A stretch of 64,000 nt of DNA from Thermoanaerobaculia bacterium. GTDB taxonomy: Bacteria > Acidobacteriota > Thermoanaerobaculia > Multivoradales > UBA5704. This document shows, one piece after another, positions 14,649-42,048 of this stretch. How positions within the stretch are numbered: position 1 is the stretch's first letter; each line of letters starts with the position of its first letter. The notes under the pieces were generated by a model. It searched no databases. It saw only the letters and a program-made list of their open reading frames with translations, and had not been told where the DNA came from. The translations under genes were made by a program, and so were the position numbers. Where the stretch lies: positions 22,917-86,916 of the forward strand of contig DASUEN010000046.1 of NCBI GenBank assembly GCA_036275055.1, given 5' to 3'.

Positions 14649-14771
14649 GGAGGCCCGGCTGCCCGCTGCACCGTTTCCTTGACACCCGGGCTCCCCGTAC
14701 GGCAAGCTGGCACCGCCCGGAAAGCACTGAAACGATGGATTGGGAGAGCCTGGGCCGTCCAAGGAGAGGAC

Positions 14772-15077: not shown

Positions 15078-15121
15078 CGCCAGCCACGCGCTACTCCGGG
15101 GGACCAGTCCCTTTCGTCGTT

Positions 15122-15197
15122 CATCTTCGTTCGCGCATCTTCGTTCGCGATGGGTCGCTCACGACTGCCGGAAGCTCCGCTCGGGACGGCTTCCGGC
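15122..15197 (+). promoter_or_regulatory. glyA leader: tandem 14-bp direct repeat plus overlapping hairpins
   Basis: CATCTTCGTTCGCG occurs back to back at 15122-15135 and 15136-15149. A 9-bp stem GCCGGAAGC/GCTTCCGGC lies at 15167-15175/15189-15197. It overlaps an alternative stem GGGACGG/CCGTCCC. Confidence 0.35.
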
Positions 15198-15220
15198 GCC
15201 GTCCCCTCTAGGAGTCTCGA

Positions 15221-16474
15221 ATGCCCGATTACCGTATGTTGAAAGCCGCTGATCCCGAGGTCTACCAGGCCATTGCCGGCGAGCGGGCCCGCCAGAGCTT
15301 CGGCCTCGAGCTGATCGCTTCCGAGAACTTCGTCAGCCGCGCGGTGATGGAAGCGGCCGGCAGCGTGATGACCAACAAATACGCCGAGGGGTACCCGGGC
15401 CGGCGCTACTATGGCGGCTGCGAGTTCGTGGACGTGGTGGAGCGGCTCGCCATCGCGCGCGCCCGGGAGCTCTTCGGGGCCGAGCACGTCAACGTCCAGC
15501 CCCACAGCGGCACCTCGGCCAACATGGCGGTCTACTTCGGCTTCCTCAAGCCGGGCGACAAGCTCATGGGCATGGCCCTCTCCGCCGGCGGCCACCTCAC
15601 CCATGGCCATCACCTCTCGTACTCCGGGCGCGACTTCCGCGTCGTGGCCTACGGCGTAGACAAGGAGACCGAGACCATCGACTACGACGAGGCCGAGCGC
15701 CTGGCCGTGGCTGAGCGGCCGAAGCTCATCATCTGCGGCGCTTCGGCCTACAGCCGGGTGATCGATTTCGCCCGCTTCCGCGCCATCGCCGACAAGGCCG
15801 GTTCCCTGCTGATGGCCGACATCGCCCACATCGCCGGCCTGGTCGCCGCGGGCGTCCATCCCTCGCCCGTCCCGTTCTGCGACTTCGTTACCACCACCAC
15901 CCACAAGACCTTGCGCGGCCCGCGAGCCGGCATGGTGATGTGCCGCGAGCAGTACGCCAAGGACCTCGACCGCGCCGTCTTCCCCGGCATCCAGGGCGGG
16001 CCGCTGATGCATATCGTCGCCGCCAAGGCCGTGGCCTTGAAGGAAGCGCTGGCGCCGGAGTTCCGCACCTACCAGCAGCAGATCGTGGCCAACGCCAGGG
16101 CGCTCGCTGCCCGCCTCATGGAGAGAGGCTTCCGCATCGTCTCCGGCGGCACCGACAACCACGTCTTCCTGATCGACGTGGCGAAAGCGGGGACCACCGG
16201 CAAAGTGGCGGAAAAATCGCTCGAAGCCGCGGGGATCACGGTGAACAAGAACACCATTCCCTACGATCCCAACCCGCCCCTGACCGCCTCGGGAGTCCGC
16301 ATCGGCACCGCCGCGCTCACCACCCGCGACATGCGCGAGACCGAGATGGGACAGGTGGGAGACCTGATCTCCGAAGTCCTCCACGCTCCCGAGGACGTGA
16401 AGGTCCAGGACGGCGTACGGGAAAAAGTGCGGGCGCTCTGCGAGAGGTTCCCGCTCTACGATCCGTTGATGTAG
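15221..16474 (+). CDS. glyA: Serine hydroxymethyltransferase
   Basis: A 417-aa ORF with unmistakable SHMT sequence ([42 protein letters not shown]...[12 protein letters not shown]). Confidence 0.95.
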
Positions 16475-16486
16475 GGCTCGGCTCCC

Positions 16487-18151
16487 CTAGGTCTGCAAAA
16501 CCCCCGTCTTGAACTCCGGGATCGCCGGGTTCATCGCCGCGCAGGCCAGGGACCGGCCGAGCACCTGGCGGGTCTCGGTGGGATCGATGATCGCGTCCAC
16601 CCAGAGGCGGGCGGCGGCGTAGCGGGGCTCGGAGGCGGCGGCATAGCGGGCCTTGATCTCCTCCAGGAGCTGCTTCTTCTCTTCTTCGGTCACGTCCGCG
16701 CCCCGGTTTTTGAGCTGGATCGAGGCGAGCGTCTTGCTCGCCTGGTCGCCGCCCATGACGGAGATGGAGGCGGAAGGCCAGGCGTAGACGAAACGGGGAC
16801 CATAGGCCTTGCCGCACATGGCATAGTTACCGGCGCCAAAGGAGTTGCCGGTGAAGAGGGTGATCTTGGGCACTGTCGAGTTGGCCACGGCGTTCACCAT
16901 CTTGGCGCCGTCCTTGATGATCCCTCCCCGCTCGGCGCGGCTCCCCACCATGAAACCCGTGACGTCCTGAAGGAACAGGAGCGGGACCTTCTTCTGATTG
17001 CACAGCTCGACGAAACGCGCTCCCTTGTCCGCCGAGTCGGAGTAGATGACGCCGCCGATCTGCAGCTCGCGGTCGGAGGCGCCGGTGCCCGTCCTCCGCG
17101 GCACGATCGAGCGCTGGTTGGCCACGATCCCCACGGCGCGCCCTTCGATCCAGCCGGTGCCGCAGATCAGGGTCTGGCCGTAACTGGCCTTGTACTCGTC
17201 GAGCTCGCTGCCGTCGAGCAGGCGCGCCAGCACCTCGTGCGTGTCGTAGGGGCGCGAGCGGTCGACCGGCATGATCCCGTAGAGGTCCTCGACGGGATAG
17301 AGGGGCTCGGCCGGCTCGCGACGGGCGAAAGGCGCCTCGGCTCCGCGCGCGAGCTGGGAGAACTGGCTGCGGATCTTCTCCAGACAAGCCGCGTCGCTGG
17401 GATGCCGGTGGTCCACCACGCCCGAGACGTCACACTGGACGAGGGCGCCCCCGAGCTCCTCGTTGTCGATCTTCTCGCCGATCGCCGCCTGTACGAGGTG
17501 GGAGCCGGCGAGGAAGATGGAGCCGGTTCCCTCCACGATGTGGGATTCGTCACTCATGATCGGCAGGTAGGCGCCGCCCGCCACGCAGGAACCCATGATG
17601 GCCGCCATCTGGAAGACCCCTTCGGCCGAGAGGCGGGCGTTGTTGTAGAAGGCCCGGCCGAAGTGCTCCTTGTCGGGGAAGATCTCGTCCTGCATCGGCA
17701 GGAAGACGCCCGCCGAATCCACCAGGTAGACGATGGGCAGCCGGTTTTCGAGGGCGATCTCCTGCGCCCGCAGCACCTTCTTGCAGGTCAGGGGGAACCA
17801 GGCTCCCGCCTTCACCGTGGCGTCGTTGGCCACCACCACCACGTCGCGGCCATGGATGGCGCCGATCCCCATCACAGCTCCGGCCGCGGGGGCGCCGCCA
17901 TACTCTTGGTAGAACCCGTCAGCCACCCAGAGCCCCAGCTCGAGGAACGGCGCACCCGGGTCGCACAGGGCCTCGACCCGCTCGCGGGCCGTCATCTTCC
18001 CCTGGGCGCGCTGCTTGTCCTGCGCCTTCAGGCCGCCCCCCTGGCGGATGCGCTCCTCCTGCTCGCGCAGCCGCTCCACCTCCTGCCGCCAGTGATCGGC
18101 CTGGCGCTCGAACGCCTCGTTCCGCTTGACCTTGCTCTCCAGGATCGCCAC
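16487..18151 (-). CDS. Acyl-CoA carboxylase carboxyltransferase subunit, methylcrotonyl-CoA carboxylase beta-like
   Basis: A 554-aa ORF (GTG start) with MCC-beta-like sequence (GKMTARERVEALCDPGAPFLELG...VVANDATVKAGAWFPLTCKK). Confidence 0.9.
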   Translation of the reverse strand: MAILESKVKRNEAFERQADHWRQEVERLREQEERIRQGGGLKAQDKQRAQGKMTARERVEALCDPGAPFLELGLWVADGFYQEYGGAPAAGAVMGIGAIHGRDVVVVANDATVKAGAWFPLTCKKVLRAQEIALENRLPIVYLVDSAGVFLPMQDEIFPDKEHFGRAFYNNARLSAEGVFQMAAIMGSCVAGGAYLPIMSDESHIVEGTGSIFLAGSHLVQAAIGEKIDNEELGGALVQCDVSGVVDHRHPSDAACLEKIRSQFSQLARGAEAPFARREPAEPLYPVEDLYGIMPVDRSRPYDTHEVLARLLDGSELDEYKASYGQTLICGTGWIEGRAVGIVANQRSIVPRRTGTGASDRELQIGGVIYSDSADKGARFVELCNQKKVPLLFLQDVTGFMVGSRAERGGIIKDGAKMVNAVANSTVPKITLFTGNSFGAGNYAMCGKAYGPRFVYAWPSASISVMGGDQASKTLASIQLKNRGADVTEEEKKQLLEEIKARYAAASEPRYAAARLWVDAIIDPTETRQVLGRSLACAAMNPAIPEFKTGVLQT

Positions 18152-20480: not shown

Positions 20481-20682
20481 CCCCCTCTCCCAGACCCTCA
20501 TCACCCCGGCCCCCTTCTCCCGCCCCCTCACCACCCCCAAGAGGGGACATGAAGGACGGTAAGGACAACAAGGACGAGGGAGTAAGGCGAGACCGCCTCA
20601 ACCGGGACCCCTTCTCCCGGTGAGGGGGGTGGCGAGGGGGCGGGAGAAGGGGCAGGGGATGAGGGTCTTGGGAGGGGGCGCT
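20481..20682. repeat. G-rich palindromic repeat element, copy 1 (two inverted ~58-bp arms around an ~85-bp core)
   Basis: Arm A (20481-20538) is close to the reverse complement of arm B (20624-20682, GGGGGGTGGCGAGGGGGCGGGAGAAGGGGCAGGGGATGAGGGTCTTGGGAGGGGGCGC). The same arm recurs at 28968-29015, 29138-29183 and 62778-62842. Confidence 0.85.
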
Positions 20683-25805: not shown

Positions 25806-27059
25806 TCACGGCGCTCTAGGAGGAGCAGAGTAGATCACCTTGCCGCCGCGCAGGGTGTAGCGCACGTTGGTGAAGGCGCGGAGGTCGGCCACCGGGTCGG
25901 TGGCGAGCACCACGAGGTCGGCGTCCATCCCCGGCGCGATCCGCCCGCGCCGGGAAGCCTCGCCGAAGCGCGCCGCCGGGTTGGTGGTCAACGCCGACAG
26001 GATCTCGCGCCAGCCGAGGCCGGCGCTTTCGAGCAGCAGATACTCCGCCGTCGGATCGTAATCGGTCAGGTATCCAACGTCTGTGCCAAAAAGGATCTGA
26101 CCTCCCGAGCGCTCGTAGTCGCGAACCTCGTCCAGGATCTCGAAAAGATAACGGTCCTTGGCAAAAAGTTTCAAGGTTGGGATGAGCGCCATGTTCTGCT
26201 GCTTCATGCGCTGGAGGTGCTCCGGCGTGAATCCCCTCGTATCCTCGATCGCGTGCGCCAAGACATCGACGTGGGTGCGCAGCGCGACTTCCAGACCTGC
26301 CACGTTGGATGGGTGGGTGAACACGAGCTTCCCCTGCCGGTGGGCTTCGGCCGCTGCCGCCGAGGCGAGATCGTCCGGCATGGGCATCACTTTTCCGTGG
26401 GCGATCCAGGAGCCGGTGAACAGCTTCGTGATATCGGCGCCGCCGCCGATGTCCTTGCGCACGACGTCCTCCGCCTGTTGCGGCGTGCTCGGCTGCGGCA
26501 GCAGCTTGAGGATCTCCGCCGGCAGCGTGTCCTTCAAGTAATAAGGGATGCCATTGGGTGGATAGAGCGGCGATCCGGCCGTCAGGATGCGTGGTCCGGC
26601 CACGTCTCCCGACTCGATGCGCCTGCGCAGGGCGGTGGTGTTTTCCAGCGACGACCCCGTGTCCACCACGGTGGTGAATCCGTAGCGCGCCAACATCTCC
26701 TGCAACTGCGAGGTCAGCTTGGGAGACGCCTGATGCTCTGCGTCGGCCCACTTCTCTTCGGTGAAATGGACGTGGCTGTTCTGGAATCCCGCGGTGATCA
26801 CCAGCCCCGTGCAGTCGAGCGTCCGCGCCCCGTCGGGAGGCTTGACCGCATCGCGCGGCCCGACCGCGACAACCTTCCCTCCTTGCACGACGATCACGCC
26901 GTCGAAGATCGGCGCCGCCTCCGGCCCCGTGTAGATCCGCGCGCCAGCGAGCACCAGCGCTTGCTCTTGAGACACTGCCATCGCCGGCAAGGCCACGAGC
27001 GCGATCAGCAGGATGAGACCGCGCAGGATGCGCCTTCCGGGGGTCACCGCTCTGTTCAT
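25806..27059 (-). CDS. Secreted metal-dependent amidohydrolase-family protein
   Basis: A 417-aa ORF with a signal peptide and amidohydrolase signatures (GFQNSHVHF..., FTHPSN..., VDVLAHAIED, GTDVGY...). Confidence 0.85.
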   Translation of the reverse strand: MNRAVTPGRRILRGLILLIALVALPAMAVSQEQALVLAGARIYTGPEAAPIFDGVIVVQGGKVVAVGPRDAVKPPDGARTLDCTGLVITAGFQNSHVHFTEEKWADAEHQASPKLTSQLQEMLARYGFTTVVDTGSSLENTTALRRRIESGDVAGPRILTAGSPLYPPNGIPYYLKDTLPAEILKLLPQPSTPQQAEDVVRKDIGGGADITKLFTGSWIAHGKVMPMPDDLASAAAAEAHRQGKLVFTHPSNVAGLEVALRTHVDVLAHAIEDTRGFTPEHLQRMKQQNMALIPTLKLFAKDRYLFEILDEVRDYERSGGQILFGTDVGYLTDYDPTAEYLLLESAGLGWREILSALTTNPAARFGEASRRGRIAPGMDADLVVLATDPVADLRAFTNVRYTLRGGKVIYSAPPRAP

Positions 27060-27268: not shown

Positions 27269-28648
27269 ATGAAGCTACCTTTTCTGGACCGCGACGAGGA
27301 GACCGCGCGCCTGGCGCGGTTGCTGGAGAGCCCGGAGGGCTCCCTGGCCGTGCTGTATGGCCGCCGGCGTTGCGGCAAGTCGCGGCTCCTGCGGGAAGTC
27401 CTGCCGCCGGAGCGGTCCATCTACTACGTGGGCGACGAGCGGGAGGGCCCTCTCCAGCAGGTGAGCCTGGCGGCGGAGATCGCCCGCCTCCTCCCTGGGT
27501 TCGACCGCGTGACCTACCCGGACTGGGACTCCCTCTGTGCCCGCTTCTGGAACGAAGCCGGCCCTGGGACGGCGCTGGTCCTCGACGAATTTCCCGCCTT
27601 GGCCGCCGTAGCCGGCGAGCTCCCGAGCGTGCTGCAGAAATACGTCGATCGCTTCTCCGAGCGGCGCATCCATCTCCTTCTCGCGGGTTCCTCGCAACGG
27701 CTGATGCAGGGTCTGGCGCTGGATCGCACGGCGCCGCTCTTTGGCCGTGCCCGGGAGATCCTCAAGATCTCTCCCCTCCGGGCTGGTTGGATTCAACGCG
27801 CCCTCCGCTTGCGCGATCCGTCCCAGGCCGTGGAAGCCTACGCCGTCTGGGGTGGCGTCCCCCGGTATTGGGAGCTGGCCGGCGATCATCCGGATCTTGC
27901 AACGGCCGTCCGCTCCCTGATCCTGAGCCCTCTCGGGGTCCTCTATGAAGAGCCCTCCCGCCTGCTCCTCGACGACTTGCGCGACACCGCCCAGGCCGCG
28001 TCGATCCTCAGCGTGATCGGTCAAGGCTGCCACCGGGCCTCCGAGATCGCGGCTCGCCTGGGCAAGCCGGCCACCTCCCTCTCGCGACCGTTGGAACGCT
28101 TGATCGAAATGGATCTCGTGGCGCGGGAAACGCCCTTCGGCACCTCGGTGCGCAGCAGCAAGCGCACCCTTTACCGGATTGCGGACCCCTTCCTGCGCTA
28201 CTGGTTTCGCTTCGTGCAACCCGATCGCTCGCGTCTGGAGGCCCGGCAGGCCGCCGCTGTGGAGAGGGACGTTGCAGCCCGTTTTCCCCATCACGCCGGC
28301 GAGGTCTGGGAGGAGCTGGCGCGGGCGAGCGTACCGGCGCTCGACCTCTTCGGCAAAACCTGGGGCCCGGCCGGCCGCTGGTGGGGACCGGGCTTGGATC
28401 GCCAGCCACTGGAGATCGACCTCGTGGCCGAGAGCACGGAGCGGGATGCCCTCCTCATCGGCGAAGTGAAGTGGACGGCGTCAGCCGATCCGGCCCGCAC
28501 GCTCCAAGAGCTGGAAAGGAAGGCAGCTCAGCTTCCTTTCGTCGAAGGGCGAGAAATCGTCCTGGCGTTGTGGCTCAAAGCGCCCGTTCGGGGAGCCATG
28601 AGCCGTCAGGTGATGACCCCGCAACAGGTGCTCACCGCGCTGCTTTGA
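27269..28648 (+). CDS. AAA-type ATPase of the archaeal-ATPase/DUF234 family
   Basis: A 459-aa ORF. Walker A is YGRRRCGKS and Walker B is LVLDEF. It has a winged-helix-like middle region (ASEIAARLGKPATSLSRPLERLIEMDLV) and a DUF234-like C-terminus (YRIADPFLRYWFRFV...EIDLVAES). Confidence 0.8.
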   Translation: MKLPFLDRDEETARLARLLESPEGSLAVLYGRRRCGKSRLLREVLPPERSIYYVGDEREGPLQQVSLAAEIARLLPGFDRVTYPDWDSLCARFWNEAGPGTALVLDEFPALAAVAGELPSVLQKYVDRFSERRIHLLLAGSSQRLMQGLALDRTAPLFGRAREILKISPLRAGWIQRALRLRDPSQAVEAYAVWGGVPRYWELAGDHPDLATAVRSLILSPLGVLYEEPSRLLLDDLRDTAQAASILSVIGQGCHRASEIAARLGKPATSLSRPLERLIEMDLVARETPFGTSVRSSKRTLYRIADPFLRYWFRFVQPDRSRLEARQAAAVERDVAARFPHHAGEVWEELARASVPALDLFGKTWGPAGRWWGPGLDRQPLEIDLVAESTERDALLIGEVKWTASADPARTLQELERKAAQLPFVEGREIVLALWLKAPVRGAMSRQVMTPQQVLTALL

Positions 28649-28666: not shown

Positions 28667-28879
28667 ATGATGATCTCCAAGATTCAGAAGTGGGATGACA
28701 GTCAAGGTCTGCGCCTCTCCAAAGACGTCCTCGAGCTTGCGGGCTTCGCTGTCGGTGACGAGGTCGAGATCGCGGTCAGTGCCGGGGAGATAGTGATCAG
28801 GAAGGCGTCAAGGCCCAGATTTGACCTTGCGGAGCTGGTTGCACGCATTCCGAAAGGGTACAAGCCGCACGAGGAGTGA
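28667..28879 (+). CDS. AbrB/MazE/SpoVT-family antitoxin-like protein with no adjacent toxin gene
   Basis: MMISKIQKWDDSQGLRLSKDVLELAGFAVGDEVEIAVSAGEIVIRKA... is typical of the swapped-hairpin MazE/PemI fold. The gene is followed at once by repeat element copy 2 rather than a mazF-like ORF. Confidence 0.7.
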   Translation: MMISKIQKWDDSQGLRLSKDVLELAGFAVGDEVEIAVSAGEIVIRKASRPRFDLAELVARIPKGYKPHEE

Positions 28880-28967: not shown

Positions 28968-29183
28968 GAGGCCCTCACTCCCCCGGCCCTCTTCTCCCAA
29001 CTTCCCCCCAGCCCCTGGGCGAGAGGGGAGCCGGAAGCGCGTAGGGTGCGCTGTGCGCACCGTGGAAGGTATTGATGGTGCGCACAGCCTCCTCTACGCG
29101 CCTGGGGCAGTCTTGCTGTTCTCCCTCTTCTCCCGGCGGCTGGGGGAGAGGCTGGGAGAAGAGGGCCGGGGTGATGAGGGCTC
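28968..29183. repeat. G-rich palindromic repeat element, copy 2 (inverted arms around a different core)
   Basis: The left arm is 28968-29015 and the right arm 29138-29183 (GGCTGGGGGAGAGGCTGGGAGAAGAGGGCCGGGGTGATGAGGGCTC). The core holds a perfect 12-bp hairpin, GCTGTGCGCACC (29050-29061) pairing with GGTGCGCACAGC (29077-29088). Confidence 0.8.
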
Positions 29184-29540: not shown

Positions 29541-30455
29541 TTGGCGACCCCACAGGAGGACCTTGATTTGAGCCAGTCAGGAAAACGCGGTGCCAAAACC
29601 TTCCTTGGGAAGCTCAACTACTACTTGAGCATTTGCAGCGCAATTGGCCTAATGGGGGTTTCAGTAATCGCCCTCTATTATGAGGGCACAGGAAGATTCG
29701 CCCCAAAGGAAAAAAATGCTCCGCGGCCAAGCACCGATGAAGCTCTGGTTTTTCTTGTCGCCATTATCTGCGGCGGAATGGGATCTGAGCGCCTTCTGAT
29801 TCTACGGAAACTGGATTCGAACGTTGAAACAGCGAGCGAAGAGCGGAGGATCATACTGGCTCGGCTCAACAAGATCAATAGGGCACTTGGAATCGATTTC
29901 AAAATGGTAGCCGGAAAAGAGAACGCTCTTATAGCAGCCCTTGCGAAGGTTAACAAGGCTGAGATTCTTATTGGTTTAGACGAAATTGAGGAGGGGGCTC
30001 AAAAGCTGCTCCTAGCCTGCGATAAGAATGATATTATCAGGGCCACTGCTCAGTATTTTCCGGCACTCGACCAAGAACACAAGGACTTGTCCGCGGACTA
30101 CCCTAGCTTTGTGGCCAAGACAGTGAAGAAAGCAATAGCCGAGAGGGGGGCAATGGAGTATCACGTGATCGTTGCTTCAGATACAGATAAGAATGCTCAA
30201 GATCGGAAAGATGCCTTCGCCGCCGAAGGTGTTTCCAAGAAACTCTTCCTGAAAATTCGTAAACAACAGTGGCCGTTTGAGGTTCTCATCGGTGGCCACT
30301 CAATGAATATAGCTATTCCAAGAATTGTAAACGAAAAAAACTACGCCGTCGCTATTAGAGTAACCGACGAGGAGTTCGTAGCAAGGGCAATCGAATGGTA
30401 CGACGATGTTCTATGGAAAGACAGTTCCGATCCTGAGGTCGGGACGCAGGTATAG
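29541..30455 (+). CDS. Hypothetical membrane protein (N-terminal 2-TM module plus ~190-aa soluble domain) in an AT-rich islet
   Basis: The only long ORF in a stretch (about 29330-30460) that is visibly much AT-richer than the rest of the window. TM helices are LNYYLSICSAIGLMGVSVIALYY and ALVFLVAIICGGMGSERLLIL. The likely start is the TTG at 29568, 8 nt after AGGAGGA; the track start is the TTG at 29541. Confidence 0.6.
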   Translation: MATPQEDLDLSQSGKRGAKTFLGKLNYYLSICSAIGLMGVSVIALYYEGTGRFAPKEKNAPRPSTDEALVFLVAIICGGMGSERLLILRKLDSNVETASEERRIILARLNKINRALGIDFKMVAGKENALIAALAKVNKAEILIGLDEIEEGAQKLLLACDKNDIIRATAQYFPALDQEHKDLSADYPSFVAKTVKKAIAERGAMEYHVIVASDTDKNAQDRKDAFAAEGVSKKLFLKIRKQQWPFEVLIGGHSMNIAIPRIVNEKNYAVAIRVTDEEFVARAIEWYDDVLWKDSSDPEVGTQV

Positions 30456-30652
30456 TCGCCTCCCATCTAGGCGAAGCCGCCGTCCGGGCGTCGTCGCACC
30501 CAGATCCAAGCCAAAGCGTGCACGGTCCTGGCTAGCCGGAGAGTGATTGTTTTAGCCTAGCCGAACGCCGCTTGGCGAAAGGGTGGGCTTGTTTCGCCGG
30601 CCATTTGGGCCTACTCTTCCGAAGTACCTATCCATTCCCAAGGAGGTCGAAG

Positions 30653-30820
30653 ATGAAGAAGAAGAGCGTCAAGAAGTTGACCCTCCACCTGGAATCGCTG
30701 CGGGTGCTCGATGGCCCTTCGATCCGCCAAGCGGCAGGCGGCACCGAAACGGGCATCACGCTCTGCGTCCTCACGACCTGCATCCGCCCGACGAAGACTC
30801 CCGTCTTCGATACTGAGTAG
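30653..30820 (+). CDS. Precursor-like small peptide P3: double-glycine leader, Thr/Cys-rich core
   Basis: MKKKSVKKLTLHLESLRVLDGPSIRQAAGG/TETGITLCVLTTCIRPTKTPVFDTE (55 aa). I trimmed track ORF 30572..30820 to the ATG at 30653, preceded by AAGGAGG. Confidence 0.55.
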   Translation: MKKKSVKKLTLHLESLRVLDGPSIRQAAGGTETGITLCVLTTCIRPTKTPVFDTE

Positions 30821-30885: not shown

Positions 30886-31204
30886 TCGTGGTTTCCGAGC
30901 GGGTTCAGGTTGGGTCCGAACGTTCAGAAGTGCCAGATTGAGCCGCAATTGTCGCAGTGTGCCTGGGTCATTCCCTCCTTCCGCTTCGCCTTGACCGACG
31001 TGATCCGGGAAGTCCCGCTGACGGGCGGCGGCACGGTCCCCATACAGTTCGAGTTCTCCGATTTCGTGCACCGTCCCGAGGGACCCGTCAATCAGCCGCG
31101 GCCTCCGGTCGCGAGTTAGTAAGAGTCCCCCATCCCGGCTCGCCGGGCCACCCTTGAAGCACCTATTCAAGAGAAGAACGCCTTCTTCCCGAAAGGAGCT
31201 GAAA

Positions 31205-31465
31205 ATGGCTTGGCGGACTCCGAACCGTAGTTGGAAAGCGGCGATGCTGGTGCTGGCCCTGGGGCTGGCGATGACCGCGCTTTTCCCAGGCCCTGCCCCG
31301 GTACAGGCTTGCCAGAACTTCACCGATTTTTGGACGTATTTCAGCGACGCCGCGCATACCAAGGTCGTCGGGCATTGCGAGCAGGACTGTTTCTGCGTTC
31401 CGCGGTTCTGCTCGGGGCAGCAGACGGCGTACTATATTGTGACCACGACGCCGGGCTGCCTGTAG
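31205..31465 (+). CDS. Small secreted Cys-rich protein (hypothetical)
   Basis: The ATG at 31205 follows GAAAGGAG. The signal peptide is MAWRTPNRSWKAAMLVLALGLAMTALFPGPAPVQA. The mature ~51 aa have 6 Cys. A 10-bp hairpin, CGCGCGGCGA/TCGCCGCGCG, lies at 31483-31506. Confidence 0.55.
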   Translation: MAWRTPNRSWKAAMLVLALGLAMTALFPGPAPVQACQNFTDFWTYFSDAAHTKVVGHCEQDCFCVPRFCSGQQTAYYIVTTTPGCL

Positions 31466-31569
31466 CCCCAACGTCTCCGCGTCGCGCGGCGATGAATCGC
31501 CGCGCGAGGACCAGCGCCGCTGAAGGGGACTTCCTGTCCCGGCGCGCGCGCCAGCCGCTGAGGCCGAAC

Positions 31570-32085
31570 GCTGCGTCCCGACTCTCCAGACACCGGTCCA
31601 GAGTCGCAGAAAGCGGGTCAGCGTCTCCTGACATCGGACCGGCACCGGCCGATCCAGAGCGATGTCTGGGGATCCGGGCCAGTGTCTCGAGACATCGCTC
31701 CTGTGTCTGGAGATCCAGACTGATGTCTGGGGATCCAAGCCGATGTCGGCTCCTCTGAAACGGTGCCTCCTGACAGCGGACCGGCGTCTGCCGATCCAGA
31801 GTGATGTCTGGGGATCCAGGCCAGTGTCTCCAGATATCGCTTCGATGTCTGGGGCTCCAGACTGATGTCCGGGGATCCAAGCCGACGCGGCTCACACTGG
31901 GCCGGCGTCTTCAGCATCGGACCGGCGTCTGCCGATCCAGAGCGTTGTCTGGCGATCCAAGCCGGTGTCGCCAGACATCGCTCCGGTGCCTGAAGATCCA
32001 AGCCGACGTCTCGGGATCCAAGCCGACGCCGGCTCACGCGGGACCAACGTCGGCAGATCCAAAGCGATGTCAGGCGATATACTCC
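31570..32085. repeat. Non-coding tandem array: about 3.5 higher-order units of 140-142 bp, each made of seven ~20-bp GATCC...GATGTCTGGG subunits
   Basis: Units are at 31621-31762, 31763-31902 and 31903-32042, with a partial fourth. GATCC occurs 12 times between 31651 and 32056. Every interval between them is 20, 41 or 60-61 bp. Confidence 0.85.
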
Positions 32086-32110
32086 GTTGTCCTGAGGTCG
32101 TGGGTCTCCT

Positions 32111-34762
32111 GTGCTCGAGCCATCCGAAACGGAGTCGGTATCCCCCCTCGCAGAGCCGGTTTCTTCGGGCAGATGGTTCTCTGGCGGCCTTCTGGACGGC
32201 CGGTACGAGATCAGGGAATGTCTTGGTCGCGGCGGCAGCGCCACCGTGTACCGCGTCTTCGACCGGCTCCTCGCGGCAGAGGTCGCCCTCAAGAGGGTCC
32301 ATCCCGAGCGCGATCCGGAACGGGCGCTCCTCCGTCTCCGGCGGGAGGTCAAGGTCGCGCGGGAGAGCCTGAGCCCTCATCTCGTCCGCGTCTACGAGCT
32401 TGGACAGTGCGGCGAGGACATTTACCTCACGATGGAGCTCCTTACGGGCGGGTCGCTCCGGGGCCGGCTGGGGAAGGGTTCTTTTCCCGTGGCGGAGGCT
32501 CTCCGGATTGCCGAGGCCGTGCTCCGCGGGCTCGCTGCGCTCCATGCGAAAGAGGTCGTACATCGCGACGTGACGCCTGGAAACGTTCTCTTTTCCGGGA
32601 GCGGCGAGCCGAAGCTCGCGGACTTCGGTCTGGCCTACCGGTTCGGGCGAGAGGAGACGCGGCTCACGCTCGCGGGAGGCGTGGTGGGAACCCTCGGATA
32701 TCTCGCGCCGGAGCAGCTTCTCGGAGAGGAAGCCAGCCCCCGGAGCGACCTTTATGCCTTGGGTGTCGTGCTGTTCGAGATGCTGGCAGGGAGACTGCCA
32801 CAGGAGGCATCCTCCGAATTCGGCCGGCGCCTCGGTCCGCTCCAGGCAGCTCCCGGCGTGCGGCAATACCGTCCCGAGGTCCCTCGCTGGCTGGCCGCGA
32901 TCGTGGCGCGGCTTTTGGAGGTGCGTCCCGTTGACCGCTATGCGAGCGCCGAAGCCGCCTTGCGGGATTTGCAACGGGAACGCCGCCCTCCCCACCTCCG
33001 GTTGCGGCGGCGACTCTTCCGTGCGGCGGTCATCAGCCTCCTCTTCCTGCCTCAGGCCGGCGTGCTCGTCACGCGCGCTCCCGAAGCAAAATTTTCCCAT
33101 CTCGTCCCGCTGGGCGAAAGCGGTATCGCCGCCGTCGGCACCGCGGGCGAAAGGCTTTGGACTCTCCCCGGAGTCGCTCCTGAAATCGCGGACCGCTGGA
33201 CCTTCGCGAGGCTCACGCCCGGCGGCCCTCGCCTCATCGCCACCGTGCTCTCCCGGCCGCAGGAGTGGTCGCTCGCGGCGGTCTCCACACTGTCTTTCCT
33301 CGACCCGGCTTCCGGGAAGGTCGTGAAGCATCGGCAGCTCCCGAACGCTGCAGACTACTTTCCGAACGACTCTCCGCGTTTTTCGTTCTCTTCAGTGAAA
33401 GCCGTCGATCTTTTCCATGACGGCGTCGACGAGATCCTCGTCAGCTACATTCACGTCCCGGAGGCGCCCGCCTACACCATCCTCTACGCGCCCCAATCCG
33501 ACCGGGCTCGCGTGATCTATTATTCGCGGGGAGGCCAGGGTTTCCAAGGCGTCGCGGATCTCGACGGCGACGGCTCCCCCGAGCTCCTTTTCGCGGGCGT
33601 CAACAACGGTTGGAACTGGGTAAACGTGGTGGCTGCGGTACGGCTCGACTTTCAATCGTTGTCCGAGGAAGGCTCGCTGCTCCCCGCGGCTGCGCCGGAC
33701 GTGATGGAGCAACCTGCGCAGGAGCGGTTCCTCCTCTGGTATGCGATCCTGCCGCGGGGGCACCTCGAAACCCCACACTTCCTCACCATCGATGAGAAGC
33801 GGCGAGAGCTCACCCTCCGCTATCGCTCCGGCAAAACCTGGACGCTCGGGTTCGACGGTTTTCCACCGGGAGCGGCAGGTCCGGAAAGGGCCGAGCGTCA
33901 ACGCGCCCGGCGAGCGGCCTATGAGCATCTCCGCGAGGCCGAACGCCTGCGCCAGTTGGGAGCGCTCGGCCTTGCCATGACCGAGGCCCTGGCCGCTCAG
34001 GGCTCAGCGGAGCTGGCGAAAGAAACCTGGCTCGGCCAATATGCCGAAAGGCTGCAGGCGAAAATCCTCGTTGCGTCGGGGAAAGTCTCGGAGGCGGAGG
34101 CGCGCTTCACGTCACTCTCGGCGAAGGCAGAGGATGCGCCCGAGGTCGCCTACGACGCCGCGGTGGCTTTCCATCTCCACGGCGATCTTCGAAAAGCGAT
34201 CATTTGGTACGAGCGCGGTATCGGCCGCGAGTCGGCGATGGGCGCGGGGAAGAGCAAGCACGAGTTCCTGAAGGGTGAGATCCTGGCTCTGGTGGAGGAG
34301 AGACGCTACACGGAAGCGCTCTCGGCGCTGGAGAGCTTCATGGCTGCGTATCCAACCTGGCGAAGCCACCTGTGGACGTACCGCGAGTACGTCCGCTGGC
34401 GAGCGGGTGAACGCCCGGATGCGGACCCTGCCGGGGTTCCGGCCAACTGGACGGACGTGGAGCGCTATTGGGATCTGGAGCTCGCGCTCGCGGACGGGGG
34501 CGAGCCCAAGGAGATCCTCCGGCGGGCCGACCGGCTCCTCGCCGAAAAGCTGGCGCCCCGGGCGGAGATTTTGTCGCTCCGGGCCGTGCTCCTGGCCCGG
34601 TTGGGGCAGCCGCGAGAAGCCGCGGCGGCGGCGCAGTCGGCCCTCGAGCTCGTGCGCGTGGAGCAGACGCGGAGTATCGTGGCGCGAGGGCATGCGGAGC
34701 TCGTGGAGAAGCGCGCCCGGGAGCTCCGCAGTGCTTCCGGTAACCCGGTAGAGAGGCCGTGA
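32111..34762 (+). CDS. Ser/Thr protein kinase with FG-GAP/VCBS-like and TPR-like C-terminal regions
   Basis: An 883-aa ORF (GTG start). Hanks kinase motifs are present (GRGGSATVY, VALKRV, HRDVTPGNVL, ADFGLA, GTLGYLAPE). Later come DLDGDGSPELLFAGVNNGWNW and helical-repeat sequence. Confidence 0.85.
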   Translation: MLEPSETESVSPLAEPVSSGRWFSGGLLDGRYEIRECLGRGGSATVYRVFDRLLAAEVALKRVHPERDPERALLRLRREVKVARESLSPHLVRVYELGQCGEDIYLTMELLTGGSLRGRLGKGSFPVAEALRIAEAVLRGLAALHAKEVVHRDVTPGNVLFSGSGEPKLADFGLAYRFGREETRLTLAGGVVGTLGYLAPEQLLGEEASPRSDLYALGVVLFEMLAGRLPQEASSEFGRRLGPLQAAPGVRQYRPEVPRWLAAIVARLLEVRPVDRYASAEAALRDLQRERRPPHLRLRRRLFRAAVISLLFLPQAGVLVTRAPEAKFSHLVPLGESGIAAVGTAGERLWTLPGVAPEIADRWTFARLTPGGPRLIATVLSRPQEWSLAAVSTLSFLDPASGKVVKHRQLPNAADYFPNDSPRFSFSSVKAVDLFHDGVDEILVSYIHVPEAPAYTILYAPQSDRARVIYYSRGGQGFQGVADLDGDGSPELLFAGVNNGWNWVNVVAAVRLDFQSLSEEGSLLPAAAPDVMEQPAQERFLLWYAILPRGHLETPHFLTIDEKRRELTLRYRSGKTWTLGFDGFPPGAAGPERAERQRARRAAYEHLREAERLRQLGALGLAMTEALAAQGSAELAKETWLGQYAERLQAKILVASGKVSEAEARFTSLSAKAEDAPEVAYDAAVAFHLHGDLRKAIIWYERGIGRESAMGAGKSKHEFLKGEILALVEERRYTEALSALESFMAAYPTWRSHLWTYREYVRWRAGERPDADPAGVPANWTDVERYWDLELALADGGEPKEILRRADRLLAEKLAPRAEILSLRAVLLARLGQPREAAAAAQSALELVRVEQTRSIVARGHAELVEKRARELRSASGNPVERP

Positions 34763-35691
34763 TGCTTCGTCTGTTATCCTTCTATGGCCAGGAAGAAAGG
34801 GTTTTCGAAGTTCCAGACAACGAAGCCCAGCTCGGGAGCAGTCCGGAGAACGATCTGGTTTTGCGCGTCCCCGGGATCTCGCGCCGGCATGCGCTCGTGC
34901 GGCGCTGCCCCGGCGGCGTCGAGCTCGTGGACCTTGGCTCCAAGAACGGCATTTTCGTGGAGGGCCGGCGAGTCAAGCGTGCGTTCCTCACGCCGGGCCT
35001 GCGGCTCCAGATCGGAGTGACCTGGCTGGAGCTCGAGGACGTCGATTCCTCCCAGGCGGAGCTTACGCGCCTGCTCCAGGATGCGTCCGAAAGAGCAGCA
35101 CCGCCCTCCGTGAGCACTGTGACCGAGTTGGCGGCCGGCGTCCAAAGCCTAACCCCGGCCGAGGCCGCCCTTGCCCTGGCCTACCACATCGCACAACGAG
35201 GAGTGGCGCTCCCGGGGAGGCGGACCGACCTGCTCGCTCGCATCAAGGCGACACTCGGCGCGGAGGCGTTCCTTTCTTTCGAGCGGCGGCGCAGCGGAGG
35301 GCTCCGGACTTTGGAGAGCGAAGGTACGTTCCTGAACGCTGACGTCCACGTCTTCGCCTCCCTGGCAGCCGATGCGAGCGTTTCGCCCTCGAAACAGGTA
35401 CTTCTCAAGCGCGCGGGACCCATCCTCGTCGCCGGCAGAGGTCCATGGTTTCTGGGAGCGAAGTTCGCCGGCGAGGCGCTTGCCCGAGAGGGATGGCGGA
35501 AGGATTTCCTGCGCTTTCTGGCCCATCGGTTCTTCCTCCCCCTGCGGACCCTCGACGACCTGAATGCCTCCGAAGCGCAGCGGATCCTCGCTCTCGTGGG
35601 CGGGAACAAGCGGAAGGCGGCGGGGCTGCTCGGAATCAGCCCCGGTACGCTCTACAAGCTTCTCGGCCACCGCGGTTCGGCCGGGCGCTGA
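34759..35691 (+). CDS. FHA-domain regulator with a C-terminal Fis-type HTH and no AAA+ domain
   Basis: The FHA domain reads LGSSPENDLVLRVPGISRRHALVRR...VDLGSKNGIFVEGRRV. The C-terminal HTH_8-like segment is ILALVGGNKRKAAGLLGISPGTLYKLL. The start overlaps the kinase stop (GTGATG). Confidence 0.8.
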   Translation: MMLRLLSFYGQEERVFEVPDNEAQLGSSPENDLVLRVPGISRRHALVRRCPGGVELVDLGSKNGIFVEGRRVKRAFLTPGLRLQIGVTWLELEDVDSSQAELTRLLQDASERAAPPSVSTVTELAAGVQSLTPAEAALALAYHIAQRGVALPGRRTDLLARIKATLGAEAFLSFERRRSGGLRTLESEGTFLNADVHVFASLAADASVSPSKQVLLKRAGPILVAGRGPWFLGAKFAGEALAREGWRKDFLRFLAHRFFLPLRTLDDLNASEAQRILALVGGNKRKAAGLLGISPGTLYKLLGHRGSAGR

Positions 35692-37157: not shown

Positions 37158-38699
<1,542 letters not shown>

Positions 38700-38750
38700 G
38701 GGCTCACCATAGCGCAGCTTGGCGAAGACTGGCAGGGGAGCAGGAGGACG

Positions 38751-38790
38751 TCGGACATCCCCGCGGGATGGTCCGACATCTTTCCGACAG
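38751..38790 (+). promoter_or_regulatory. Candidate upstream activator sites: two SCGACATCY motifs 21 bp apart
   Basis: CGGACATCC lies at 38752-38760 and CCGACATCT at 38772-38780, with GACATC cores at 38754 and 38775. A third partial copy, CCGACAG, is at 38784-38790. They sit 60-85 bp upstream of the -24 element. Confidence 0.4.
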
Positions 38791-38835
38791 GGCGAAAGCC
38801 GGCGGCGGCGGAGGGCTCCAGGGGGGATTCGTGCC

Positions 38836-38850
38836 TGGCACCACGCTTGC
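38836..38850 (+). promoter_or_regulatory. Sigma54 (-24/-12) promoter
   Basis: TGGCAC-cacgc-TTGC lies at 38836-38850, an exact match to TGGCAC-N5-TTGC with GG and GC 12 nt apart. It is 54 nt upstream of the ATG at 38904 and divergent from the bEBP gene. Confidence 0.75.
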
Positions 38851-38903
38851 TCTGAGCGTTTGTCAAATATCACCCGTCAACGTCACTCAAGGAGGGATGA
38901 AAC

Positions 38904-39250: not shown

Positions 39251-41854
39251 CTACCGCGCCCCTGCGCCCGCGGCCTTCGCGAGCTGCGGGCGCACGGCGT
39301 CGAACCAGGGAAACGCGAACCAGCGGCGGTCGACGCCGCCGGCCAAGGCCTTTCTGGCATTCATGCGGGCGGAGGTCTCGTCGCCCACCAGGGCGTAGAC
39401 CAGAGATGCGGCATAGGCCACCTGGGGATCGCCGGCATCGTGGCGCTGGGCCTCTTGGATCGCCGCCACCGCCTCTTCGGAGCGGCCGAGGTGCGCCAGG
39501 GCCTGAGCGCGGGTGGTCAGCAAGGCATCGGGATCGGGATCGCGGGCGGCGTTTTCCAGCACTCGCGAGTAGAAAGCCGAAGCCCCTGGGCGATCGCCCC
39601 GCAGCAGCGCCGTATCGGCCAGGTTCAAGAGCGTCATCGGCGAGGAAGGAGCTTCTTTGAGGGCGCTGCGAAAGCTTTGGTCAGCCGCCTCGTAGCGATT
39701 GAGAAGCAGGTAGGCCATGCCGAGGTTGGTCAGCTCCGTTTCATCGGGAGCGCGCTTGACGAGCGTTTCGTAAAGCTCTGCGGCACGCTGCGGATTGCCG
39801 TTCAAGAGCTCCAGTTGGGCCAGGCGCGAAAGGGCATTGTACCGGTCCGGCGAACGCTCAAGGGCGATCTCCAGATAACGCCGGGCGCCGTTGACGTCGC
39901 CCGCTCGCAAGGCCATGTCGGACGCCTGTTGCAGCAGGAGCCAGGAGGGCTCGCGGCCGGCGGCGCGGCGGATCAGCGCCAGTCCCTCCTGGCTTTTACC
40001 CTGCTTTTCGAGCAGCGACGCCGCGAGCCCTTGGAAGCCCGGGTCGTCCGGCTGCACCCGCTGCGCACGAGCGAGAACGGCGGCGGCTTGCTGCAATCGT
40101 CCGCTGTTGAGCTCGACGAGGAAGGCGGCGCGCAGGGCACGCGGGTCATCGGGCGCCAGCTCCGTGGCGCGGGCGATGGCGGCGCGCGCGCGGCCGAGGG
40201 CAGCCTGGTCCCGATCGACCACGAACTGTTGCCGGGCGATGTTGGTTTCCAGGAGGTAGGCTTCGAGGAAGCGGGGCGAGGTGCGCTCGATCTGCGCCAA
40301 TTCGGTGAGGAACGCGGCGGGAGACGTTCCGCTGTCGCGGGTGCGGTAGCGGCGGCTCAGGTCGAGGAATTTTGCGTAGTCGGTCTCCGTCACCTGCAGG
40401 TCCGCAATCCCGGCGCGCAGCGCGAGATCAGGATAGGCGCCGCGCACCTGCTCCGCCACCGAGGCGCTCAAACGCAGGAGCTCGTGGACCGGCACGTCGA
40501 AGCGATGGACCCACGACAAGCTCCCGTCGGCGCGCAGGCGCCGTAGCTCGACCTGGCAGTCCTCGCCCGCACAGTCCAGGCGGGAGGTCACGACCTCATC
40601 GGTGGCGACGGCGCGCGCCAACTTCACCGGATCGTCGTCGGTTTCACCCGGCGGCGGCTCGCGCACCGCCAGGCCTTGAAAACCGAGGAGCGCCCGCAGG
40701 AGCCCGGTGTGCACGGCTCCCGCCGCGAGGTGCTGGTCCTCGGGAGCGGCGGTCGGAGGCACCGCAACGGACGTCGCCGGGGGAGGCGAGGCCAGCCAGC
40801 GCCAGGCGGTGAAGGCGAGCAGGGCTAGAGCGAGGAGCGCCGCCGCCGCGGCCAGCAGGCGGCGGCGCGGCCAGCCCAGGGCGCCCCGGCCGGAAACGGC
40901 AGCCGGCGCGCCGGGCGCCGTCGGATCGAGAGTGGGGACGGAGAGACCCGGCGGCGGCGTCAGCGCGGGCATCTCCGGGTGCGTCTCACCCGACCCCGCG
41001 AGCTCGGCGAGGAGGGCCATCACCTCCTCCGTCCGCTCCGGCCGCCTCGCTTTGTCTTTCTGCAACAGCCGGTCGACCAGATCGCTCAAAGGCGCGGGAG
41101 TCTCCGGGGCGAGGTGGATCACGGCCGGCGGCTTCTGAGTGCAGATGCGGGTCAGGGTCTCGATCGCGTTCTCCGATCGAAAGGGCAAGACTCCCGTGAG
41201 CATTTGATACAGCAAAATGCCGAGAGAAAAGAGATCGGAGCGGTGGTCGACCGGCTGGCCCAGGGCCTGCTCGGGGGACATGAAGTTGACCGTGCCCACG
41301 ATCTGGCCGGTGCCGGAGAGCGACGAGAGCACAGGGTCCGGCCCCGCGAAACGGCGGGCGAGGCCGAAATCGAGGATCTTGACCTCGCCGCCGGCCGTCA
41401 GCATGACGTTGTCGGCCTTGAGGTCGCGATGCACGATGCCGGCGCGATGGGCGGCGGCGAGACCGGCCGCGACGTCGCGGGCGATGCGCACCGCCTGGTC
41501 CGCCGGCAAGGGGCCGCCGGCGAGGAGCGCGGAGAGCGGCCGGCCCTCCACGAGCTCCATCACCAGCCAGTCGTCGCCCTCGGCTTCGACCCAGTCGTAG
41601 ACCTGCACCAGGTTGCCGTGGCTCAGGCGGGCGAGGGCGCGCGCCTCGCGCCGGAAGCGAGCGCGGCCGGCCTCGGGATCGCGAGCGTCCGGCTTGATGC
41701 GCTTCAGGGCCACTGGCCGGTCGAGCCGGTCGTCGTACCCCTGATAGACCTCCCCCATGCCGCCGCGGCCGAGCAGACGCTCGACGCGATAGGGCCCCAG
41801 CATGGCCGGCGGCGACGAACGGTCCGAACGATTCGCAGCGGGCTCCAACGACAT
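39251..41854 (-). CDS. Ser/Thr protein kinase with one TM segment and a long TPR domain
   Basis: An 867-aa ORF. Kinase motifs are GRGGMGEVY, VALKRI, HRDLKADNVML, DFGLA and GTVNFMSPE. A TM helix (LLAAAAALLALALLAFTAW) is followed by about 400 aa of TPR-like repeats. Confidence 0.85.
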   Translation of the reverse strand: MSLEPAANRSDRSSPPAMLGPYRVERLLGRGGMGEVYQGYDDRLDRPVALKRIKPDARDPEAGRARFRREARALARLSHGNLVQVYDWVEAEGDDWLVMELVEGRPLSALLAGGPLPADQAVRIARDVAAGLAAAHRAGIVHRDLKADNVMLTAGGEVKILDFGLARRFAGPDPVLSSLSGTGQIVGTVNFMSPEQALGQPVDHRSDLFSLGILLYQMLTGVLPFRSENAIETLTRICTQKPPAVIHLAPETPAPLSDLVDRLLQKDKARRPERTEEVMALLAELAGSGETHPEMPALTPPPGLSVPTLDPTAPGAPAAVSGRGALGWPRRRLLAAAAALLALALLAFTAWRWLASPPPATSVAVPPTAAPEDQHLAAGAVHTGLLRALLGFQGLAVREPPPGETDDDPVKLARAVATDEVVTSRLDCAGEDCQVELRRLRADGSLSWVHRFDVPVHELLRLSASVAEQVRGAYPDLALRAGIADLQVTETDYAKFLDLSRRYRTRDSGTSPAAFLTELAQIERTSPRFLEAYLLETNIARQQFVVDRDQAALGRARAAIARATELAPDDPRALRAAFLVELNSGRLQQAAAVLARAQRVQPDDPGFQGLAASLLEKQGKSQEGLALIRRAAGREPSWLLLQQASDMALRAGDVNGARRYLEIALERSPDRYNALSRLAQLELLNGNPQRAAELYETLVKRAPDETELTNLGMAYLLLNRYEAADQSFRSALKEAPSSPMTLLNLADTALLRGDRPGASAFYSRVLENAARDPDPDALLTTRAQALAHLGRSEEAVAAIQEAQRHDAGDPQVAYAASLVYALVGDETSARMNARKALAGGVDRRWFAFPWFDAVRPQLAKAAGAGAR

Positions 41855-41990: not shown

Positions 41991-42005
41991 TGGCACAGCC
42001 GTTGC
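41991..42005 (+). promoter_or_regulatory. Sigma54 (-24/-12) promoter
   Basis: TGGCAC-agccg-TTGC lies at 41991-42005, an exact consensus core. It is 44 nt upstream of the ATG at 42049. Confidence 0.75.
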
Positions 42006-42048
42006 TCTCTGCCGCCACCACAACCTGTTGTTTCATGGAGGGATGACG

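Follow-up and report, generated by a model that had tools for sequence, protein, structure and literature searches.

The genes for a Ser/Thr kinase and an FHA regulator in a 64,000-nucleotide stretch of a Thermoanaerobaculia genome (contig DASUEN010000046.1; the whole stretch is called the window here) are preceded by a block of short, evenly spaced tandem repeats. The original prediction, made from the letters of the DNA, suggested that the block might be a protein-binding array that serves the adjacent operon. What kind of element is this array, and does it belong to the operon that it precedes?

Anatomy of the array and of its family

The array occupies positions 31582–32076 of the window and consists of ∼24 non-coding units, each 20 or 21 bp long; three higher-order repeats of 141–142 bp make up most of it. 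The repeat block is real, as predicted: Tandem Repeats Finder reports 31621–32037 with a period of 142, 2.9 copies, 82% matches and a score of 550, and 20-bp periods are nested within it. When the core TC-N4-GA was used to search for the lattice, 26 consecutive cores were found from 31582 onward at a mean period of 20.28 bp (16 units of 20 bp, eight of 21 bp and one of 19 bp). The lattice score was 24.5, compared with no more than 3.0 among 200 shuffles. The lattice stands as first described; its extent had to be revised, as degenerate units carry it further upstream, to ∼31582. All 12 copies of GATCC lie where the original prediction placed them, separated by 20, 41 or 60–61 bp, and its count of ten for GATGTC/GACATC (seven and three, respectively) was borne out. 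The density of these three motifs in the array is 10 to 50 times that of the remaining window. A 20-mer consensus searched with up to three mismatches gave eight matches, every one within the array, where shuffles give 0.04.

Two main unit types and a punctuation unit (P) were recognized. Type A is 21 bp long (GTCTCCWGACATCGG..., consensus GTCTCCWGACATCGGnCCGGC) and type B is 20 bp long (GTCTGGGGATCCAGRCCGAT); their order in the window is ABBABBx / ABBABBP / xBBABBP / B. Window units read GTCTGGGGATCC and have no GTAG. Information content is highest at the core (G1 T2 C3 ... G8 A9) and lower in the center and spacer, and G+C is 0.62–0.68 both across the array and beside it. Each 141-bp repeat contains a 44-bp palindrome; the counterparts of the palindrome in repeat 1 lie at 31799–31842 and 31940–31983, and 15/16, 16/16 and 15/16 arm positions pair across the three. 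Arms pair better with their own partners than with shuffled ones (274 paired cells vs 259 ± 3.9, the observed value being reached by 0/2000 shuffles). There are two arm classes, GAGC...GCTC and GTCC...GGAC, with a G-C/C-G swap at palindrome columns 3/42. Because the copies are paralogous, this covariation amounts to roughly one compensatory event. An assembly artefact is an unlikely source of the array because arrays of the same family occur in several independent assemblies and the long copies here are just 79–88% identical.

A degenerate two-unit pattern was scanned over one genome per GTDB species and identified three separate large contigs (L006, L008 and L011) of a single metagenome-assembled genome, Thermoanaerobaculum sp. 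b48_HoplandSoilSeptJan (b48). Loci with a single match (L007, L009, L010, L012, L014, L015, L018 and L019) carry no arrays and were discarded as chance matches. A scan of metagenomes re-found two of the b48 contigs and added one new soil contig, L013. The arrays at L006, L008, L011 and L013 have 24–27 units of 20/21 bp, with nested periods of 41, 61, 82, 143 and 164 bp, and the L011 repeat has the same seven-unit structure as the window (ABBABB plus punctuation, 143 bp). In arrays of the window type and the b48 type, every higher-order repeat has one or two 44-bp palindromes. The neighboring genes differ. At L008, a mazEF operon lies downstream, and genes for a TIR-domain protein and an antitoxin lie upstream. 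L011 adjoins genes for a dual-specificity phosphatase and, divergently, an ankyrin-repeat protein, and L006 adjoins a YhgA/Transposase_31 gene. In the window, L008, L011 and L006, the array is oriented like its downstream gene.

L013 is the L006 locus from another strain, and the two copies differ by whole units (deletions of 21 and 20 bp, with local reshuffling). They also differ by a 981-bp insertion (L006:5309–6289), which carries the YhgA/Rpn-like gene (Transposase_31 + DUF4351) and sits exactly at the downstream edge of the array; it recurs in L023 and L024 and is absent from L013. To judge from these junctions, array edges seem to be points of insertion or rearrangement. Lacking the insertion, the L013 array sits between two convergent genes, which indicates that arrays are not tied to promoters; the L013 and L028 arrays adjoin the stop codon of the convergent gene.

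At L006 and L013 the array directly follows a small gene and its intrinsic terminator (L006: gene 4159–4716, array 4777–5310). Homologues of the small protein are numerous in Thermoanaerobaculia, often on short contigs, and belong to no Pfam family. At 94% identity (L023–L025) the arrangement is the same, with ∼23 array units plus two flank units in a 25-core lattice call; the L025 contig ends within the array, after 16 units. At 72% identity (L026) there are 26 strongly degenerate units and a pntB gene downstream, and at 64% (L027) the gene has no array after it. At 55% (L028, L029) the 24 units average 20.43 bp in period and differ in sequence (TTCTCCGGATGTTTCGCCAGC, GTCTCCAGAGTTTTCTCCGGC, ATCCGCAGATCTRCGCCGAC, TTCCAGGGAGTCACGCCGAC), and the higher-order repeat is 82 bp long; long inverted repeats are almost absent from these arrays, and a quarter of the units contain GATC. 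At this one locus, the order small gene, terminator, array is therefore kept down to 55% protein identity.

Eight arrays were compared. They have 24–28 units, span 491–575 bp and have mean periods of 20.28–20.54 bp; their unit lengths are solely 20 or 21 bp, save two of 19. All have the AT-richer core TC-N4-GA followed by a GC-rich spacer, and most start right after a terminator. The detailed unit sequence, the length of the higher-order repeat, the long palindromes and the flanking genes are not conserved. Unit variants are uniform within a genome: GTAG/ACAG/CCAG cores recur in all three b48 arrays, and GGGG/CCAG throughout the window array. Between genomes whose kinase orthologues are just 61% identical, unit cores are ∼90% alike. 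No flanking sequence or neighboring gene is common to all arrays: when upstream flanks were compared pairwise by blastn, the only matches were among the orthologues L006, L026 and L028. The sample represents four independent loci in about four lineages. Short-read assemblies cannot span long homogeneous arrays, so the upper bound on array length is biased; the arrays probably break such assemblies. Arrays lie on large, apparently chromosomal contigs, with at least three per genome.

The original prediction recognized no described class of element, and we agree, since Rfam, Pfam, plasmids, phages and viral contigs all gave no match. Specifically, blastn against PLSDB plasmids and INPHARED and a pattern search of IMG/VR found no array, and a plasmid, phage or viral origin was rejected on these grounds. 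A profile of the 44-bp module (nhmmer) gave 176 matches inside arrays and, outside them, none better than E = 0.15 in 234 kb, a search space that includes the 64-kb window and ∼50 kb of b48. Likenesses of the GTCT..AGAC core to DnaA-box, LexA-box, lux/tra-box, metbox and HutC/dre sites were considered and dropped as loose. The family is new and restricted to Thermoanaerobaculia, within the broad class of bacterial intergenic repeat arrays.

The kinase operon and the flanks of the array

Pfam confirmed the Ser/Thr kinase and the FHA regulator downstream of the array. By its homologues, the kinase assigns the window to Thermoanaerobaculia, phylum Acidobacteriota. Beyond the FHA gene lie a gene for a collagen-like protein and, on the opposite strand, one for a sigma-54 enhancer-binding protein. 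Orthologous kinase-FHA/HTH loci were compared in L001–L005 (72–75% identity) and in b48 and two related assemblies (L020–L022, 61%). In every one of them the kinase gene is followed by the same FHA-HTH gene, the upstream neighbors differ, and the intergenic region upstream is just ∼100–220 bp. None has a tandem array upstream of the kinase, including b48, which bears arrays at three other loci. The functional tie to the operon and to its local regulators that was originally proposed is not upheld: orthologous operons lack the array, and other arrays flank unrelated genes. The array is independent of the kinase operon.

Alignment with L002, the closest informative orthologue, shows where the two meet. 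Homology begins at GCGATATACT; its start lies exactly at GCGATATACTCCG, which comprises the TATACT hexamer and a short leader, and everything 5′ of that in the window is array. Because homology starts at its 3′ edge, the array ends where synteny breaks, directly against the native core promoter. The TATACT hexamer and the GTG start codon were correctly located in the original prediction (Table 1), but the hexamer is native promoter sequence outside the array. The array has taken the place of whatever DNA preceded the −10 element and could therefore alter expression of the kinase operon; nothing suggests that it evolved for that purpose.

A sigma-54 promoter (pattern TGGCAC-N5-TTGCW, up to three mismatches) was not found between 31401 and 32200. 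Perfect matches (TGGCAC-N5-TTGCT) occur on the plus strand at 38836–38851 and 41991–42006, by the gene for the enhancer-binding protein. The first lies inside the 5′ end of that open reading frame (ORF; 37158–38873, minus strand); it is on the other strand and points away from this ORF. The sigma-54 promoter at 38836, and not the kinase promoter, is the likely target of the enhancer-binding protein.

Two observations on the kinases stand apart from the array. A second Ser/Thr kinase with a long TPR region is encoded near the first (39251–41854, minus strand); its C-terminal part is not homologous. In b48, the kinase-FHA operon is flanked (L020:1938–7798 and 14266–17658) by genes of the kind that conjugative or mobilisable elements typically carry (Replic_Relax, a DUF87/TrwB-like ATPase, RadC, DUF932, and TrwB_AAD_bind + HTH_17).

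Table 1. Features of the array and its immediate flanks in the window
Feature	Position	Strand	Basis or remark
ORF of 103 aa, signal-peptide-like, Cys-rich, co-oriented with the array	31154..31465	+	ORF list
Perfect palindrome with 12-bp arms (TCGCGCGGCGAT GA ATCGCCGCGCGA), 3′ of the 103-aa ORF	31482..31507	+	
Degenerate leading lattice units (CTCTCCAGACACCGGTCCAGA, GTCGCAGAAAGCGGGTCAGC)	31582..31622	+	Unit segmentation
Higher-order repeat 1, seven units: ABBABB + punctuation-like unit	31623..31764	+	
44-bp palindrome in repeat 1, 16-nt arms, 12-nt spacer	31657..31700		Inverted-repeat search
Higher-order repeat 2: ABBABB + P (CGGCTCACACTGGGCCGGC)	31765..31906	+	88% identical to copy 1
Higher-order repeat 3: xBBABB + P	31907..32048	+	79% identical to copy 1
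Last B unit (GTCGGCAGATCCAAAGCGAT) and junction to the native promoter region	32049..32076	+	
TATACT, −10-like hexamer of the kinase promoter	32078..32083	+	Conserved in the L002 orthologue; outside the array
Ser/Thr protein kinase with C-terminal TPR repeats	32111..34762	+	Pfam; GTG start at 32111
FHA + HTH_8 protein	34759..35691	+	Pfam; 3′ of the kinase in all orthologous loci, array or not

On its other side, the DNA from the amidohydrolase gene (25806–27059) to the array looks like a variable island, and it looks defense- or toxin-antitoxin-related. A DUF234/ATPase_2 protein with a winged-helix domain (27269–28648, plus strand) matches the PADLOC candidate defense family PDC-S27 and is followed by a small MazE/AbrB-like ORF (28667–28879, plus strand) with no obvious toxin partner. 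The island also holds an element resembling a MITE (a miniature transposable element with inverted repeats), an ORF of 49% G+C that has no known family, and small ORFs of no known family. A 304-aa ORF (29541–30455, plus strand) has an N-terminal hydrophobic segment and 46–52% G+C in a genome of 62–70% G+C; it was probably acquired horizontally, and had no match in Pfam, PHROGs, NCBIfam or PADLOC. The ORF at 30572–30820 (plus strand) contains the stretch MKKKSVKKLTLHLESLRVLD, which we take to recall the leader peptides of ribosomally synthesized modified peptides; NCBIfam gave no match to this ORF. Closest to the array, the 103-aa ORF has a GC3 (G+C at third codon positions) pattern consistent with coding and no match in Pfam, PHROGs, NCBIfam or PADLOC. 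The palindrome 3′ of it is a possible terminator hairpin, although one without a T tract and not called in a scan for terminators; at other loci, arrays follow canonical intrinsic terminators.

Two further repeat families were seen in the window. One, which is MITE/REPIN-like and has no relation to the array, is a scattered family of inverted repeats of ∼200 bp (20482–20682, 28971–29181 and 62769–62841) whose terminal arms, ∼38 nt long, are G-rich/C-rich (GGGGGTGGCGAGGGGGCGGGAGAAGAGGGCCGGG...); the genome thus has REPIN/MITE-like elements distinct from the array. The other consists of ∼9 copies of a 123-bp tandem repeat (49656–51290) inside the minus-strand ORF 49552–53241. These repeats have the look of coding repeats, and our guess is a beta-propeller or WD40-like protein.

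A possible DNA scaffold and its alternatives

We asked whether the arrays act as protein, as RNA or as DNA. A minus-strand ORF of 244 aa (31618–32352) is open through the whole array, so the original statement that no reading frame is coherent there was wrong as worded; it was right in substance, as this ORF has no coding signature. GC3 is 0.62–0.66 in all six frames of the array, compared with GC1/2/3 of 0.74/0.50/0.78 in the kinase gene. ORFs spanning arrays gave no Pfam match, and translation of the array found no protein homologue. A translated repeat protein, which the original prediction had named as a possible refutation, was rejected on these three grounds together with the 20-bp deletion between orthologous arrays. 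Public gene calls nevertheless place a 190-aa "protein" over the arrays at L023:2046–2618 and L024:1281–1853. Annotators should expect such spurious calls, and should not read the arrays as regulators of whichever gene lies downstream.

Both strands of the window array fold far better than shuffles (z = −7.6 and −5.7). Across five arrays, plus- and minus-strand fold energies and G-U counts showed no consistent bias. Since no strand stands out throughout for its stability or its G-U pairs, nothing points to selection on a single transcript. Two Rfam scans returned nothing at the gathering score, the sole match with E<1 being a plant microRNA model at 19 bits, and promoter and terminator scans found no such sites in or beside arrays. 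A structured RNA or type III antitoxin repeat RNA was rejected for want of an Rfam match, strand bias, and promoter or terminator sites. Symmetry thus resides at the level of DNA, and since the arrays start after terminators and, in the window, lie upstream of the conserved −10 element, they fall outside the sense-direction mRNAs of their flanking genes.

We tentatively favor, as a real possibility, a reading in which the array, as double-stranded DNA, is a scaffold that a protein encoded elsewhere would bind cooperatively and on one face. The strict phasing from which the original prediction argued for protein binding or wrapping is real and family-wide (20.3–20.5 bp in eight arrays); because this phasing is so strictly conserved, cooperative same-face binding or wrapping remains the best candidate mechanism. 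Each unit would offer an AT-richer core, TC-N4-GA (in the window GTCTnnRGAY, often a GTCT/AGAC palindrome), set off by a GC-rich spacer, so that ∼25 equivalent sites would be presented every two helical turns along one slowly spiralling face. The 20.4-bp period is shorter than two turns of relaxed B-DNA (21 bp), from which we infer a displacement of about −20 degrees per site and a slow left-handed spiral. A sequence-specific protein from elsewhere in the genome would bind cooperatively and co-evolve with its sites, so that gene or island boundaries would bear a filament or wrap of protein and DNA whose size is defined. Uniform unit variants within a genome are what a co-evolving binder would produce, and L026, with degenerate units, and L028, with different ones, both keep the lattice and its length. 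The window array may have arrived with or beside the variable island and now abuts the kinase core promoter; any effect on the operon would be a positional side effect, through occlusion or insulation upstream of the −10 element.

The small protein that precedes some arrays, specific to Thermoanaerobaculia, is a candidate binder, suggested by its conserved adjacency at one locus only. A long helical hairpin or coiled coil is predicted for it; its C-terminal motif, HYGIRAEKLxEFGLQPFRGRK, is invariant, and its Pro/Thr tail is disordered. Searches of PHROGs, NCBIfam, PADLOC, PDB sequences, viral contigs and pre-computed Pfam found no relatives, and Foldseek with its AlphaFold model found no fold relative. 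Tblastn with the small protein found nothing in the 64-kb window, L008 or L011. A bolder proposal, to which we give little credence, is that arrays and small protein form a chromatin- or centromere-like chromosomal system. The protein would polymerise on the ∼25 sites into ∼0.5-kb particles that mark or insulate gene and island boundaries, acting at a distance on all arrays, including the one at the kinase operon.

Several points weigh against a DNA scaffold. The binding protein is putative, and the candidate lies beside arrays in only one locus lineage, is not encoded in the window and has no recognizable DNA-binding fold. The constant array length may in part be an ascertainment effect, as longer arrays would break short-read assemblies, and concerted evolution alone can keep a tandem array regular. 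The covarying arms of the 44-bp palindromes also fit a hairpin or cruciform mechanism. Two alternatives build on these last points. The arrays could be neutral or selfish higher-order minisatellites, generated by slippage and unequal crossing-over, homogenized by concerted evolution and settled without function in tolerant intergenic spots. Whole-unit insertions, deletions and rearrangements between orthologous arrays would be expected on this account, as would a higher-order structure typical of unequal exchange, a location in accessory regions rich in toxin-antitoxin and candidate defense genes, and synteny breaks and the 981-bp insertion exactly at array edges. We nevertheless regard it as unlikely: an array is kept at the same locus while identity of the neighboring protein falls from 100% to 55%, with units replaced but the 20.4-bp period and the ∼500-bp length retained. 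No short or decayed array was seen among those analyzed, and the ∼90% likeness of unit cores noted above persists between genomes with 61%-identical kinases. More doubtful still is an element akin to repetitive extragenic palindromes (REPs) and bacterial interspersed mosaic elements (BIMEs), whose hairpins or cruciforms would serve as bidirectional transcription barriers, protect mRNA 3′ ends, or bind gyrase or nucleoid proteins. The palindromes with 16-nt arms, the strong folding of both strands, and the position of arrays after terminators and, at L013 and L028, beside a convergent stop codon would suit such a role, and REPs are described as clustering in tandem and binding several proteins (PMC2817692, PMC3733652). 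Against it, no scattered single or paired copies occur in the 234 kb searched, window units have no GTAG tag, the L028-type lattice is nearly free of long inverted repeats, the ORFs scanned around arrays included no RAYT transposase, and there is no U tract, the terminator scan being empty.

The remaining alternatives tie the array to one operon, to a transcript or to methylation. In the first, the FHA-HTH_8 protein or the sigma-54 enhancer-binding protein would bind the array, which would serve the kinase/FHA operon in an enhancer-like or titrating role. This accords with the abutting core promoter and with the two Fis-type HTH proteins encoded nearby; it is very unlikely, given that orthologous operons with the same FHA-HTH gene have no array, that in b48 the family's arrays have unrelated genes beside them, that no sigma-54 promoter lies upstream of the kinase, and that the enhancer-binding protein has a perfect divergent one at 38836. 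It is similarly hard to credit that the array works as RNA, either as a multi-hairpin sponge or as a long structured 5′ leader of the kinase mRNA. The predicted folding is strong, and in the window, L008, L011 and L006 the array runs the same way as the gene that follows, but there is no strand asymmetry, no Rfam match and no promoter-like site, either within the array or ahead of it; arrays come immediately after terminators, the conserved −10 element lies downstream of the window array, and the L013 array separates convergent genes. The original suggestion of a methylation-sensitive switch, here in the manner of Dam/SeqA, has in its favor the 12 GATC sites on the lattice, and units with GATC are found in other arrays too. 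Its premise that every unit carries GATC does not hold, since only about half do in the window (12 of ∼24) and a quarter do in L028. Outside the array the window shows no depletion of GATC (7.0 per kb), and no gene for a GATC methyltransferase or SeqA-like protein was found among the ORFs scanned, which cover part of the window. We consider such a switch barely credible.

Comparison with known systems

Several known kinds of repeat resemble the arrays in part. Iterons are direct repeats of 17–22 bp placed about two helical turns apart, and some carry GATC, all of which recalls the array. Iteron origins differ in that the array has no rep gene, DnaA-box cluster or AT-rich unwinding element (G+C is 62–68%), its neighbors are a small secreted-type ORF and a kinase gene, there are several arrays per genome, and ∼25 contiguous units are several times the number typical of an iteron origin. 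Mycobacterial interspersed repetitive units (MIRUs) are 40–100 bp long, few per locus and often translated or translationally coupled. Like the arrays, MIRUs and other variable-number tandem repeats are intergenic and vary in unit number between strains; array units, in contrast, are 20/21 bp long and frameless, and array size and phase are conserved across lineages. In CRISPR loci spacers separate the repeats, whereas array units are contiguous. An iteron origin, a CRISPR, a type III antitoxin RNA, a sigma-54 enhancer and a translated repeat each fail at least one defining feature.

REP/BIME clusters of E. coli and tagged REP clusters, including the Neisseria dRS3/NIME repeats, share with the arrays an extragenic location, palindromes and tandem clustering. 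REPs and BIMEs are described as extragenic, palindrome-containing and often tandem, situated at 3′ ends or between genes, and hotspots of local rearrangement (PMC2817692, PMC3333891, PMC3733652), with REPs usually present in >100 copies per genome (PMC2817692). The arrays, by contrast, have no scattered copies, and a fixed 20/21-bp lattice of ∼25 units is foreign to REPs. The REP/BIME unit is an imperfect palindrome able to form a stem-loop, and units alternate in orientation. Arrays of the window and b48 types have 44-bp palindromes made from neighboring units, the core of a single array unit, GTCT-NN-AGAC, is too short to fold alone, and the L028 variant has almost no long palindromes. Window units have no conserved GTAG or CGTC tag, and no Y1_Tnp match was obtained among the ORFs scanned around arrays, which did not include every window ORF. 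Bacterial intergenic arrays that keep their period, unit count and length despite turnover of their sequence are rare, and they point to a structural role for the DNA more than to one in coding or as RNA.

The comparison that comes closest to a DNA scaffold is with plasmid centromeres (F sopC; parC of pSK41, R1 and pB171; parH of TP228), though no gene for a ParA/ParM NTPase, a ribbon-helix-helix (RHH) protein or a ParB-like protein lies by the window array, L006, L008, L011, L023, L026 or L028, and the arrays have no PLSDB match and lie on apparently chromosomal contigs. The likeness is one of design, in that the repeats run head to tail, in phase, and share a short palindromic core. Binding of tandem repeats by RHH centromere-binding proteins is cooperative, and pSK41 forms a superhelical ParR-centromere complex (PMC3074162). 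In F sopC, which follows sopB closely on its downstream side, there are twelve 43-bp repeats and each takes up one SopB dimer (PMC2910045); its total of 516 bp, 3′ of the gene for its binder, may be compared with the succession of small gene, terminator and 500-bp array in L006, L026 and L028. Plasmid centromeres are bound cooperatively by dimers into a higher-order complex, a logic that for the arrays is only proposed. If a dedicated protein does assemble on them, a role for which the small coiled-coil protein is a ready candidate, the arrays would count as a nucleoprotein element new among those of chromosomes, in a class of Acidobacteriota that has been little studied and is for the most part uncultured.

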